Below, in pieces: positions 29,086 to 38,274 of a stretch of 64,000 nucleotides of DNA. Each line of letters starts with the position of its first letter. The stretch's first letter is position 1. The notes beneath the pieces were generated by a model. It searched no databases. It saw only the letters and a list, made by a program, of their open reading frames with translations, and was not told where the DNA came from. The stretch is from a virus. Its lineage: Duplodnaviria > Caudoviricetes. Made by a program: the position numbers and the translations under genes. The stretch is taken from positions 1,676 to 65,675 of the IMG/VR virus record IMGVR_UViG_3300027816_000103. One strand, 5' to 3'.

Positions 29086-29215
29086 GTTAACTATACAATT
29101 GTCAATAGTAATTAGTTAACTATAATTAACTAGCGAACTATATAACTTTGAATAAATAGATAACTGTTTAACTAGCGAACTCAATAACTATAGGCTATAT
29201 ATAAATTTGTAACTC
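29086..29215. repeat. Iteron-like TAACT / TTAACTAGCGAACT repeats (candidate origin)
   Basis: Exact 14-bp repeat at 29126-29139 and 29168-29181, plus several TAACT copies in the AT-rich divergent intergenic region. Confidence 0.55.
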
Positions 29216-29299
29216 TTGAGTAGTGGTTGTCAATAATTATTTTTAAAAGAAAAGAAAAGGAAAAAAGAAACAAGTCAGAGAAGAAACTTAAAAAGGAAA

Positions 29300-32024: not shown

Positions 32025-32915
32025 ATGATACTAAAAGTAGGTTCAAAAGGAGAGGCAGTTAAATCTTTACAGACCTTTCTAAATATCACAGCAGATGGTA
32101 TATTCGGTAAAAACACAGAAGCTGCCGTTAAACAGTATCAAGAGAATCATGGTCTTGTACCAGATGGTATAGTCGGGAAAAGAACATGGACATCTATGGG
32201 ATTGGCAGCTACAGATAATGCAGAAAGGCCAGACATAATAGAAGAACAAGATATTACTCTTGATATTAAAAAGTCATACCTTCCAAAAGGACAATACATT
32301 GAGGCTAATGTTAAAAAGCAATGGATATTCCTACATCACACAGCAGGTTGGCAGAATCCATACGGAACTATATCTGGGTGGGCAAGAGATGATAGAGGAA
32401 TGGTTGCTACAGAGTTTGTTATCGGAGGGCAGTCAATTTATGGCAATGATAATAAATATGATGGAGAGGTAGTACAGGCTTTCCCTGCCGGAAGCTATGG
32501 TTGGCATCTTGGAATTGGAAGAACAGCCATGCACATGAACTCTGTAGGTATTGAAGTTTGCAATTTCGGGAATCTAAAGGATGGTAAGACTTGGGCGGGA
32601 GGGACAGTAGTTGAATCACAAATCGTTAAACTAAAACAAAAGTTTAAAGGAGCTGAATACTACCACAGATATTCAGACACTCAACTAAAAGCATTAAAGC
32701 AGCTAATACTATTTATAGCAGAAAGAGACAATATAGATCCAAGAAAAGGAATCAGGCAGTTAATTGAAGCAAAAGGAGTATTCCCAGCATTTGAAATGAC
32801 CGATGCTAAATACTGTTCAATGAATCCTGGAATGTACACACATGTTAATGTATTTGCGGGTAAATGCGATATGTTTCCACAGGTTGAAGTAGTGGATATG
32901 ATAATGAGTTTATGA
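32025..32915 (+). CDS. Endolysin: peptidoglycan-binding domain plus N-acetylmuramoyl-L-alanine amidase
   Basis: LKVGSKGEAVKSLQ...DGIFG...DGIVG (PG-binding); IFLHHTAG, SVGIEVCN, THVN (Zn amidase). Confidence 0.9.
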   Translation: MILKVGSKGEAVKSLQTFLNITADGIFGKNTEAAVKQYQENHGLVPDGIVGKRTWTSMGLAATDNAERPDIIEEQDITLDIKKSYLPKGQYIEANVKKQWIFLHHTAGWQNPYGTISGWARDDRGMVATEFVIGGQSIYGNDNKYDGEVVQAFPAGSYGWHLGIGRTAMHMNSVGIEVCNFGNLKDGKTWAGGTVVESQIVKLKQKFKGAEYYHRYSDTQLKALKQLILFIAERDNIDPRKGIRQLIEAKGVFPAFEMTDAKYCSMNPGMYTHVNVFAGKCDMFPQVEVVDMIMSL

Positions 32916-32986
32916 GTTATGTCGCATAACGAATGGTGCTATACGCTCGTTTTAATGGCGTATAGCACGTGTTACAGGTAGTAGGG
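32916..32986. other. attC-like imperfect palindrome
   Basis: GCATAAC...GTGCTATACGC-N11-GCGTATAGCAC...GTTACAG, preceded by GTTATG-TCG-CATAAC. Confidence 0.55.
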
Positions 32987-33746
32987 ATTTTTACCACAAA
33001 ACTTAATTAGAAGTACAAACTAAAAAGAATTAAAAAAAAGAGCGATGGCAAAAATATTAGTAGCTTGTGAAGAAAGTCAAGCAATAACAAAAGCATTTAG
33101 AAAATTAGGACACGAAGCATTTAGTTGTGATTTGCTTCCTTGTAGTGGAGGACATCCAGAATGGCATTATCAACAAGATGTTTTTGAAGTGATTGATAAA
33201 GGATGGGATATGATGATTGCCCACCCACCTTGTACGTATTTATCAGTTGCAGGTGCTTGGGCAATGTATAATAAAGATGGAAGTATAAATGAAGTGCGAA
33301 TGAAAAACCAAAATGATGCTTTGGATTTTGTAAGAAAACTAATGGATGCACCAATAAAACATATTGCGATAGAAAACCCTATAAGTGTTATTAGTAGCCA
33401 AATCAGAAAGCCCGACCAAATTGTGCATCCATATCATTTTGGAGAAAAGGCAAGCAAAAGCACTTGTTTATGGTTGAAAAATTTACCAAAATTAAAGCAT
33501 ACAAATGTTGTTGAAAAAGGCGAGTTTAAGGAGTGGGTGGATAAAAAGAGTGGTAAAACAAAACGACAATCTACTTGGATTTATGATTGCTTACAACAAG
33601 CAAAATCACCCGAACATTTAAGAACATTACGAAGCAAAACATTTCAAGGAATTGCAGATGCTATTTCAGAACAGTGGGGAGGTTTTTTAAATTCTTTTTC
33701 TAACGAAAATGTTTAATCGAAGCACTTCACCCCTATTACCTGTAAC
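32971..33746 (+). mobile_element. Single-gene cassette (integron-cassette-like) carrying the methyltransferase
   Basis: Terminal inverted repeat 15/16: GTTACAGGTAGTAGGG (32971-32986) and CCCTATTACCTGTAAC (33731-33746). Confidence 0.6.
33045..33716 (+). CDS. Short phage-type DNA cytosine-C5 methyltransferase
   Basis: Catalytic AHPPC and IENP motifs; ILVACEESQ N-terminus; RSKTFQGIADA C-terminus. Confidence 0.75.
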   Translation: MAKILVACEESQAITKAFRKLGHEAFSCDLLPCSGGHPEWHYQQDVFEVIDKGWDMMIAHPPCTYLSVAGAWAMYNKDGSINEVRMKNQNDALDFVRKLMDAPIKHIAIENPISVISSQIRKPDQIVHPYHFGEKASKSTCLWLKNLPKLKHTNVVEKGEFKEWVDKKSGKTKRQSTWIYDCLQQAKSPEHLRTLRSKTFQGIADAISEQWGGFLNSFSNENV

Positions 33747-33766
33747 TCGTTTATAAGCGCACCTTT

Positions 33767-33885
33767 TGTAACATATATAGTACAAAAATGTTACATTTTG
33801 TCCTTTATGTGATACATTAAAATTATACGCGATCAGGTATAAAACAACCTAAAGTAGCATATTTTATATGCGATAGGGTATAAAA
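33767..33885. repeat. Cluster of short palindromes
   Basis: TGTAACAT-N13-ATGTTACA (33767-33795); TTATACGCGATCAGGTATAA (33823-33842); TTTTATATGCGATAGGGTATAAAA (33862-33885). Confidence 0.7.
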
Positions 33886-33893
33886 ATAAAAAC

Positions 33894-34034
33894 ATGAACA
33901 AACAATTAATACAGAGAATAGAGGAGATCTTCTTAGAAAAGCTCAAAGAAAAGACAGGGTGGGGGAGAAATCAAATAATAAAGATTTTCAAAGAGTCCAT
34001 CAAAGAAGCTCTCTTAGAATTTGTAGATAAATAA
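33894..34034 (+). CDS. Small hypothetical protein (46 aa)
   Basis: Hand translation MNKQLIQRIEEIFLEKLKEKTGWGRNQ...; AAAAC-ATG leader. Confidence 0.6.
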   Translation: MNKQLIQRIEEIFLEKLKEKTGWGRNQIIKIFKESIKEALLEFVDK

Positions 34035-37011: not shown

Positions 37012-38274
37012 ATGAACACACAAGAAAAAACAAACACAATTAGCGAATTAAGAGAGATAATAAATTTCGCTAATGAAAACGGAGAATATCCTAAAGACTT
37101 ATTTTCATTCATACAAGAAAAACAAATAAGTCTTAAAAATATCATATACTCAATAAAAAATCATGATATTTATTTAGATGATATTTTAGGAGATAAAAAT
37201 TGTTTTGAACACAATGGATATTTTTATAATTGCGAATTATGGATAATAACAAGAGAAGATGAAGTTGTTTACGTTGATGATGCTAACTTTTGCGAATACT
37301 CACAGGAATATACAACGGAAGATATTACAGAAGTAAAAATAAGTAGGAGAGAATCTCAATACTGGAGTGAAAGTAAAGCTGAAAGATACGCTTATTTATA
37401 TGGGGGTGATTATTACGAAAATTTAGAAAATTTCGACCTTGTTACCTGTACTGATGATGATGAAATTTACCACATTGATGACCTTTATTATTGGGAATCT
37501 GACCAAGAATACCACTTAGAATCCGAAGAAGAATCAGAAATTTATGTAAACGATTATCACTCAGGAAAACATGAAAAAATAACATTTACAGAAAATCAAA
37601 AATTCTTTATTGGTTATGAAATAGAGAAAGAAGATAAAGAGATAAAAGAATCTATTTGTATAAGTGATTTTAAGAGTAATTGCCCTAAGTGGAGAAAGGA
37701 AAGAGATGGTAGTTTAAATTCTGAATCAGGGTTTGAATTAATTTCACCCACAATGGAATTAAATGTACAAGAGATAGAAAAGTATATTAGAAAAAATAAA
37801 ACGCTCATAAGCCATATAAACGCGGAAAAATCGAATTCTTGTGGCGGGCATATAAATATTTCACAAATAGACTTAACAGGAGAAGAATTATTCGACAAAA
37901 TTAAAGGATATACGCCCCTATTTTATGCCTTATATCATAAAAGAGTAGATAAAGACTATTGCAAAGGAAAGAAAAATACAGAATTAAAAGGTCAAAACGA
38001 AAAATATCAAGCCATTAAGATACATGATAACAGGGTAGAATATAGAATTATTAGTGCTGTTCCGAATTTCAATACTTTAATCTGGAGAACTAAATTATTT
38101 GATTTTATTTTAAATAACCAATCTTCCTGCCCAAAAGACGTATTTTTTAAAATTAATACATCACCATTAAAGGAATTATTAATGGAGCAATACCCAAACG
38201 AAAAATTTGAAGTATTAGTTAACAGGATTATATCCTTTACTCTTCAGTTCGAAAACATACAACTAAAAAAATAA
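37012..38274 (+). CDS. Putative amidoligase (COOH-NH2 ligase, Amidoligase_2-like)
   Basis: IGYEIE, ERDGSL, GFELISP, SCGGHINIS, KYQAI and RVEYRI motifs; Tyr/Asp-rich repetitive N-terminal region. Confidence 0.8.
   Translation: MNTQEKTNTISELREIINFANENGEYPKDLFSFIQEKQISLKNIIYSIKNHDIYLDDILGDKNCFEHNGYFYNCELWIITREDEVVYVDDANFCEYSQEYTTEDITEVKISRRESQYWSESKAERYAYLYGGDYYENLENFDLVTCTDDDEIYHIDDLYYWESDQEYHLESEEESEIYVNDYHSGKHEKITFTENQKFFIGYEIEKEDKEIKESICISDFKSNCPKWRKERDGSLNSESGFELISPTMELNVQEIEKYIRKNKTLISHINAEKSNSCGGHINISQIDLTGEELFDKIKGYTPLFYALYHKRVDKDYCKGKKNTELKGQNEKYQAIKIHDNRVEYRIISAVPNFNTLIWRTKLFDFILNNQSSCPKDVFFKINTSPLKELLMEQYPNEKFEVLVNRIISFTLQFENIQLKK

Follow-up and report, generated by a model that had tools for sequence, protein, structure and literature searches.

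The DNA analysed here (the window) is a 64-kb part of the 65,675-base viral record IMGVR_UViG_3300027816_000103 (Caudoviricetes), for which CheckV estimates a completeness of about 95%. Just downstream of the endolysin gene it carries a discrete, mobile, cassette-like unit: a hairpin site, a short left arm, a leader, a single gene for a putative DNA methyltransferase and a right arm complementary to the left one, the whole bounded on both sides by TAAC (Table 1). It belongs to a large family of integron-like cassettes, apparently undescribed, that is found in Bacteroidota phages and their hosts. On balance we lean towards structure-specific, integron-like site-specific recombination at TAAC by a trans-acting enzyme as the way in which such units move.

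Three copies of the unit, in the window and in the viral loci L011 and L006, align with a mean column identity of 92%, flanks counted in. Their homology begins at TAAC|G on the left (32930/32931) and ends exactly after the TAAC on the right (TAAC|T, 33746/33747), with unrelated sequence beyond; these limits define the unit as positions 32931 to 33746, 816 nt. A preliminary description of the region, made from the sequence alone, had already put the gene in a mobile cassette, which the copies bear out, and had set the junction at the GTT at 32971, which they do not: the break lies 40 nt further left. The L006 copy has another hairpin stem, with compensatory changes. A 21-nt probe from the 3′ part of the unit recovers nine viral loci. 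The same 223-aa gene is present in L006, L010 (partial) and L011, and four more types of C5 methyltransferase sit between like ends, with PF00145 proteins in L001, L003, L005 and L009; a neighbouring unit in L001 holds a PF02086 adenine methyltransferase. In six further viral loci the probe region closes in TAAC and the sequence after it is unrelated. Among phage records, blastn returned both ends without the gene in the uncultured 634-kb phage LR745206.1, where the same 5′ part (about 115 nt) and 3′ part (about 65 nt) flank a 302-aa C5 methyltransferase preceded by a D12 adenine methyltransferase gene. Other genes between the same ends, for which the preliminary description had suggested a search, are therefore present, C5 methyltransferases among them. 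Unrelated methyltransferase families have in common the first bases around the start codon and the last ~10 codons, with the C-terminus FLNSFS[N/D]ENV (window 33683-33716; L001 4985-5019; L003 4300-4333). The core of the gene has been exchanged within conserved ends.

The locus itself varies between related phages. Endolysin homologues with 85% (L012) and 81% (L013) amino acid identity mark the same place in two relatives. In L013 the endolysin stop codon is followed by a similar short palindrome ending in TAAC, a different unit with an open reading frame (ORF) of 100 aa that belongs to no known family, and a closing TAAC; L012 has only 75 nt, which also end in TAAC. About 20 nt after the TAAC align in the window, L012 and L013. 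The presence/absence comparison suggested in the preliminary description thus finds other content in the relatives, with breakpoints at TAAC. Similar palindromes precede the unit in L003 and L013, and a palindromic left flank of this kind is seen in 4 of 59 distinct viral sites; the palindrome at 32916-32930 is a possible entry site. As contigs, the phage occurs in runs X1-X11. Contigs from four sequencing runs show the phage to be present in X10 and X11, break at the ends of the unit and, in X11, have different cargo enclosed by these ends (joint 33037 to 33684). Separately, in runs X10, X11 and X12 we observed a contig form that joins window position 32993 to 33708 with four other letters between, keeping the hairpin and both arms and lacking the gene. 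It may be an ORF-less mini unit, or an assembly artefact; this gene-less form had no match in viral contigs and none in metagenome contigs.

All motifs listed in the preliminary description (palindrome, 11-nt arms, 16-nt arms and two boxes) are present at the positions it gave. A second pair of complementary arms, absent from that description, lies inside the first and shows one compensatory change between the two unit types.

Table 1. Parts of the methyltransferase unit and its immediate surroundings in the window.
Feature	Position	Strand	Remarks
Endolysin gene	32025..32915	+	backbone gene left of the unit; PG_binding_1 (E 1.3e-14), Amidase_2 (E 3.2e-09); matches PHROG endolysin families
Short palindrome GTTATG-TCG-CATAAC	32916..32930	+	abuts the endolysin stop; folds as a 6-bp stem; its last four bases, TAAC, form the left junction
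Conserved site	32923..32978	+	TAAC (32927-32930), G and 4-nt spacer, 11-bp stem, loop TCGTTTTAATG, GT, GTTA (32971-32974)
Mobile unit, 816 nt	32931..33746	+	order: G, spacer, hairpin, left arm, leader, gene, right arm ending in TAAC
Inner hairpin stem	32936-32946 / 32958-32968		perfect 11-nt arms around the 11-nt loop
Left arm GTTACAGGTAGTAGGG, 16 nt	32971..32986	+	starts with GTTA; pairs with the right arm of its own unit
5′ leader, conserved	32987..33044	+	box TTAATTAGAAGTAC (33003-33016) and A-rich second arm (33022-33038); kept in units with other cargo (L001, L003, L005, L008)
Second arm pair	33022-33038 / 33683-33699		17 nt, 94% complementary
Cargo gene, 223-aa putative DNA methyltransferase	33045..33716	+	phrog_757 'DNA methyltransferase', E 4.7e-63
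Conserved 3′ part, within and after the gene end	33683..33730	+	T-rich second arm (33683-33699), last ~10 codons, box TTAATCGAAGCAC (33713-33725)
Right arm CCCTATTACCTGTAAC	33731..33746	+	final TAAC is the right junction
Right flank TCGTTTATAAGCGCACCTTTT...	33747..33770	+	backbone common to relatives; aligns with the sequence after TAAC in L013 and L012

The left and right arms form an inverted match of 15/16 (18/20 when extended). Allowing up to three mismatches, the 16-mer arm has three matches in the window against 0.18 expected, and none of 100 shuffles reaches three, so that chance does not explain the arm pair; the two strong matches are the two ends of the unit. The extension to 20 nt was rejected as chance, the added bases being flank that is not common to L001 or L003. 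Terminal inverted repeats of 16 bp might also suggest a cut-and-paste DNA transposon or an element resembling a miniature inverted-repeat transposable element, moved by a DDE transposase in trans, and the possible gene-less form in the run contigs would suit such an element. We consider this origin very improbable. The repeat ends in the window, L001 and L003 have no target-site duplication, the sign that the preliminary description had named as speaking against a cassette; the copies are homologous for 40 nt past the left repeat, through the hairpin; and the repeats differ between units while their complementarity is kept, which suits a fold rather than a binding site for a transposase.

Arm sequences are specific to each unit and nevertheless complementary within it. 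For 40 sites with 1.5 kb on both sides, the 18 nt that follow the hairpin were reverse-complemented and matched against all 18-mers that end in TAAC. At 200-1000 nt downstream, 15/40 sites have a match of at least 14/18 and 8/40 one of at least 16/18; in the upstream control the corresponding figures are 2/40 and 0/40, and the arm just across the hairpin reaches at least 14/18 in 2/40 sites. The adenine methyltransferase unit of L001, with GTTACCTGC... pairing with ...GCAGGTAAC, is an example. At arm position 11 a G on the left stands opposite a T on the right in 19 of 20 distinct units, and at this position the left arm of several pairs is one base longer, a bulge that is a reading by eye only. 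An arm pairs with the far end of its own unit and not with the neighbouring arm, as would be expected of units that go through a stage with the right end linked to the hairpin end, later reopened at TAAC. A circular or otherwise joined intermediate is implied, in which a single strand, presumably one particular strand, would fold.

When the two ends of the unit in the window were joined in a script and folded as DNA, they gave a 16-bp stem, a 5/2-nt spacer, an 11-bp stem and an 11-nt loop, with a ΔG of -23.7 (shuffles: -7.1 ± 2.5); adding the second arm pair brings it to -33.7 (shuffles: -14.1 ± 2.8). The ends thus behave as two halves of one folded palindromic site, in agreement with the attC-like ends proposed in the preliminary description. 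Under recombination at TAAC, each cassette would begin with a folded 5′ site (TAAC, a spacer led by G, a stem of 10-15 bp, the loop CGTTTTAAT, the return stem and GTTA), continue with an arm of 16-22 nt, a leader and one gene, and close with the complementary arm ending in TAAC. With the ends joined, as in a circle, they would form one long hairpin of two or three tiers, in which an unpaired spacer separates the outer from the inner stem as in the attC layout. If strands were then exchanged within TAAC or directly behind it, next to the spacer, the cassette would land behind any ...TAAC, the target in the window being the short palindrome after the endolysin stop codon. The enzyme would come from elsewhere: either a small Xer-like tyrosine recombinase of the kind found by arrays in other phages, or a host homologue.

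The hairpin site recurs in dozens of viral contigs, often in arrays, as TAAC, stem, loop CGTTTTAAT, stem and GTTA. A search pattern free of any structure term (TAACG, 10-24 nt, CGTTTTAATG) hits at least 115 viral stretches. Among 129 matches listed, 54 have at least 11 stem pairs around the loop, compared to 3.7% with permuted 3′ flanks, and it is this figure, not the alignment of 58 sites described below, that is the fairer measure of structure. When 58 distinct sites are aligned, the loop, TAAC and GTTA do not vary (TAAC and GTTA in 58/58, partly by construction, as the detector required them), and the stem covaries: both sides change in 10 of 11 stem pairs, 88% of stem cells pair compared to 35-57% when the partner is slid, and 196 cells are changed on both sides against 71 ± 7 in shuffles. 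R1, a covariance model built for the site family, has a single match in the window (32923-32978; 62.5 bits, E 7e-11). Several contigs hold arrays of 2-7 sites, on one strand in every case; the arrays start with a hairpin, and after the closing TAAC of the last unit comes T or A, without another hairpin. The gene of a phage unit is placed 3′ of the site. Polaribacter phage P12002L has five R1 sites, all within methyltransferase clusters. We also observed in this phage (L131, minus strand, 29166-29247 and 37200-37304) that both methyltransferase arrays end in ...TAAC followed by the same sequence of ~70 nt, AACGGATAAAACAAG..., which is a landing or end module.

Both insertion sequences of the IS200/IS605 type and CTX-type folded-strand integration by Xer recombinases insert at a fixed short target without duplicating it and recognise folded hairpins. 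Single-strand transposition by an HUH (Y1) enzyme as in IS200/IS605, inserting 3′ of TAAC with a hairpin end beside it and with the right end also in TAAC, would account for the invariant TAAC at left flank and right end, the lack of target duplication, the position of the hairpin 1-6 nt from the left junction and the specific orientation of insertion. It is nonetheless highly unlikely here. PF01797, the sole HUH family searched, is found in 0/5 site-bearing viral records; the host genome G054, which has 13 sites, has no Y1 gene; and no R1 site lies near nine Y1 loci. On these three results the idea of a Y1 transposase or RAYT was rejected. Moreover, the hairpin is at the left end only, the right end lacking a matching subterminal one, and the units, unlike IS200/IS605, carry no mobility gene of their own.

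The family extends to cellular genomes. A stricter pattern hits at least 120 stretches in prokaryote genomes; of 80 loci taken from these, 61 have a structured site, mostly on contigs titled as Bacteroidota, isolates included, with a minority titled as other phyla. Five isolate genomes have 4-13 R1 matches each and no integron integrase above cut-off, and only 8 of 151 evenly drawn Bacteroidota genomes have any match. In viral loci the genes lie on the site strand in 31 cases, on the opposite strand in one and unclearly in 21; in genome contigs the numbers are 22, 38 and 14. Since genes in cellular contigs are mostly on the opposite strand, the gene there usually precedes the site, as it does in integrons. 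An array of three sites in Flavivirga obeys the own-end rule and carries Tdi1-like and DUF7677 genes. In the region around it (L166 967-1310 and 5536-5876; G056:C29 215-223 kb) a ~113-aa piece from the C-terminus of a tyrosine recombinase occurs six times or more, in the same orientation as the genes of the array. On a Wocania contig (L147 912-1093), a site with complete arms and a T-run adjoins a Flavo-1 RNA (51.9 bits) upstream of a gene read as rpsU; other copies precede unrelated genes.

What enzyme could act on these sites? The phage of the window has no gene for a tyrosine recombinase (PF00589), a Y1 transposase (PF01797) or a serine recombinase (PF00239), so that any enzyme must work in trans, much as the preliminary description had supposed. 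Two array-rich large phages code for homologous Xer-like tyrosine recombinases of 265-268 aa (265-277 aa across homologues). They fall below every NCBIfam cut-off, the best being XerA (184-194 bits vs 220). On the integron integrase model TIGR02249, whose cut-off is 265 bits, they reach 151-159, the match being in two stretches. Of 50 further viral records that bear sites, 7, mostly large ones, have close homologues (53-79% identity); the figure for site-free records is 0 of 46, their best match having an E-value of 1e-12 and about 30% identity or less. In six of nine loci a site lies within 1.5 kb of the recombinase gene. In L011 a site is followed after 59 nt by a homologue with 41% identity (1828-2661), which two small ORFs separate from an upstream copy of the window's methyltransferase unit. 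Serine recombinases were found in 0/5 records. Taken together, these data are suggestive of a Xer-like tyrosine recombinase, or a host homologue of it, as the candidate enzyme. The arrangement in L011 (1720-2661) was noted in its own right: the recombinase gene is placed directly after the site, as if it were cassette cargo, and is followed by genes for an HNH nuclease and a DnaB-like helicase.

Of 301 Bacteroidota genomes, 107 have a homologue of the recombinase. A generic hairpin scan 3′ of 30 host recombinase genes was too noisy to read. At one host locus (L314, ~2351-2420) we noticed an element of the form TAAAC...hairpin...GTTATACAGTAGT right after the stop codon of the recombinase homologue, with the architecture of the family and another loop. 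Rather tentatively, we propose a second cassette system common to Bacteroidota and their phages and independent of integron integrases. Its units would be recognised by the TAAC...CGTTTTAAT...GTTA fold together with unit-specific arms and exchanged via circles by small Xer-like recombinases; phages would use it to swap anti-restriction methyltransferases and dozens of small genes, and cells would use opposite-strand arrays that include immunity genes.

How the parts of the site are shared gives a view of where exchange takes place. Among 178 distinct sites, 29 pairs share the hairpin and the right arm and not the left arm, and five share the left arm and the hairpin and not the right arm; 66 pairs share the right arm only, 29 the left arm only and 299 the hairpin only. 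The hairpin travels mainly with the gene downstream of it, with exchange on its other side occurring too. This is at odds with the preliminary description, which had taken the hairpin for the hybrid remnant of an upstream attC (29 pairs vs 5).

The main rival to recombination at TAAC is that the unit is a regulatory module. In such a module the hairpin would be a terminator or RNA-processing signal, the arms would pair in the mRNA (5′ leader with 3′ end) to affect stability or translation, and co-infecting phages would shuffle modules by homologous or short-homology recombination at the hairpins, in the manner of the PeSL (promoter and stem-loop) cassettes known from other phages (PMC2839356, PMC4122927). 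Sites do lie between co-oriented genes: a same-strand ORF follows within 200 nt in 54 of 59 distinct viral sites, and the upstream frame stops at the TAA of TAAC in 19 of 59. The few hairpin alleles common to many sites, seen in the 299 pairs with nothing but the hairpin in common, would provide homology for exchange, and the phage has recombination genes of its own (exonuclease, SbcC-like, Mre11-like). Arm mismatches are wobbles on the + strand 25 times and on the - strand six times (G.T vs A.C in the sense strand), the second arm pair spans the A-rich leader just 5′ of the start codon, and host copies have complete arms and a T-run. Several observations are hard to fit to such a module: array ends are cut off exactly at TAAC with no piece of hairpin past it, the insertion in the window has no homology past TAAC on either side, and arms that are unit-specific and pair over 200-1000 nt are not a known feature of PeSL cassettes. 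A patchy distribution (8/151 Bacteroidota genomes) would be odd for a basic host signal, and no Rfam family fits the hairpin in phage or host loci. We regard the regulatory module as unlikely, although less so than either kind of transposition.

Recombination at TAAC by a dedicated enzyme has several points against it as well. Breaks are not confined to TAAC: 66 site pairs have the right arm in common and differ in the hairpin, and the L006 copy has a swapped hairpin. Contigs of the four runs contain no circular junction or excision joint. The pattern for an empty site (the two flanks with a gap of 0-20 nt, the empty join reading ...CATAAC followed by TCGTTTATAAG...) has no match in metagenome contigs, no exact empty site was found, and a search for clean indels between related loci gave none, the one candidate proving unrelated. 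The bias towards G.T suits an RNA fold of the sense strand as well as a fold of single-stranded DNA. The sites behind the own-end, wobble and covariation counts came from a detector demanding a stem or complementarity, and these counts lean towards structure. Many host chromosomal copies look like terminators, with adjacent arms that are complementary and complete, followed by a T-run. Kinship confounds the link to the recombinase: the records with sites come from Bacteroidota phages, most of them in one group of large phages, and the controls from unrelated phages. Finally, complete small phages with sites are without the recombinase, and the phage of the window has one site only and no recombinase.

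The likeness to integrons is considerable. An attC is likewise an imperfect palindrome closed by ...AAC and GTT..., with two stems and an unpaired spacer between them. In both cases stem sequence is free and pairing is kept, the inner stem covarying and the arms varying while staying paired. Integron cassettes, too, hold one gene per unit in co-oriented arrays with methyltransferase cargo, and their first bases pair with their own far end. In contrast to integrons, phage units have the site 5′ of the gene, a junction on the TAAC side and not at G|TT, arms of 16-22 nt instead of 7, a conserved loop CGTTTTAAT and no integron integrase. In integrons, extrahelical bases of attC identify the strand that recombines, and the integrase IntI, which has an extra segment, is encoded beside the array. 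Seventeen attC clusters without integrase (CALINs) have been described in phages by Qi et al. 2023 (PMC9892861), with methyltransferases among their genes and two methyltransferases in the virulent phage P12002L, and IntI1 recombined one of two tested P12002L sites, P12002L_attC2 (PMC9892861). P12002L has five sites of the present family.

A second relative is the rAID-1 arrays of Bacteroidales. In these a XerD-family recombinase goes with short genes in one orientation and with conserved motifs between the genes, "reminiscent of integrons"; how they work is stated to be unknown (Ross et al. 2019, 10.1101/471110; PMC12247911). Going by the published outline of these arrays, L191 is similar, with a recombinase followed by co-oriented ORFs that each have a site after them; the same broad outline is seen in L011, and the Flavivirga array with its Tdi1-like immunity genes resembles it as well. 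The window differs from rAID-1 as outlined there, having one unit, no recombinase and methyltransferase cargo. The sequence of the rAID-1 motif is probably different from the present site, R1 having matches in 8/151 Bacteroidota genomes and the recombinase having homologues in 107/301.

The closest phage analogue that works by homologous recombination is the PeSL cassettes of T4-type phages, in which direct repeats contain a promoter and a stem-loop (PMC2839356, PMC4122927). These, too, are small conserved stem-loops between accessory genes in variable regions of lytic phages, where they mark gene gain, loss and replacement. The present units differ from that description in their complementary arms, in junctions at TAAC outside the hairpin, in a last unit without hairpin and in hosts of another phylum, a comparison made on the junctions. 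In Rfam and in the literature, as far as the text of the sources extends, we found no description of this site family; nearest are the phage CALINs (Qi et al. 2023) and the rAID motifs (Ross et al. 2019).

Gene gain and gene swapping in lytic phages are mostly credited to homologous or illegitimate recombination. The precise junctions, the sites conserved as a fold and the own-end pairing speak for a mechanism devoted to cassettes that extends over many phages of Bacteroidota, jumbo phages among them, and into host chromosomes. R1 provides a concrete site model for finding such cassettes, a candidate enzyme can be named, and a possible answer emerges to how recombinase-associated gene arrays of Bacteroidota arise. 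If the second cassette system tentatively proposed above is real, it would supply a mechanism for rAID-type arrays and a direct route for cassettes between phage and host.

The cargo of the window's unit is a putative DNA methyltransferase, whose most likely role is to guard the phage DNA against host restriction. Its phage homologues are annotated as DNA or cytosine methyltransferases, and the nearest Atlas clusters are named SAM-dependent or DNA cytosine methyltransferase, the nearest cluster having a family being assigned PF00145 in 24% of its members. The protein itself has no match in Pfam (E up to 0.01, PF00145 included), in NCBIfam or among PDB sequences; PC and ENP motifs were read by eye in its translation. 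The remaining gene set of the phage is of the lytic type, with an exonuclease, helicases, a primase, SbcC-like and Mre11-like proteins and HNH nucleases.

Further repeats lie to the right of the unit. Positions 33764-33787 form a 12/12-nt near-palindrome, and 33823-33885 hold two 22-nt direct repeats 41 nt apart, which form an inverted pair as well, upstream of a small ORF at 33894; the two regions may be the promoter or operator region of the next module.

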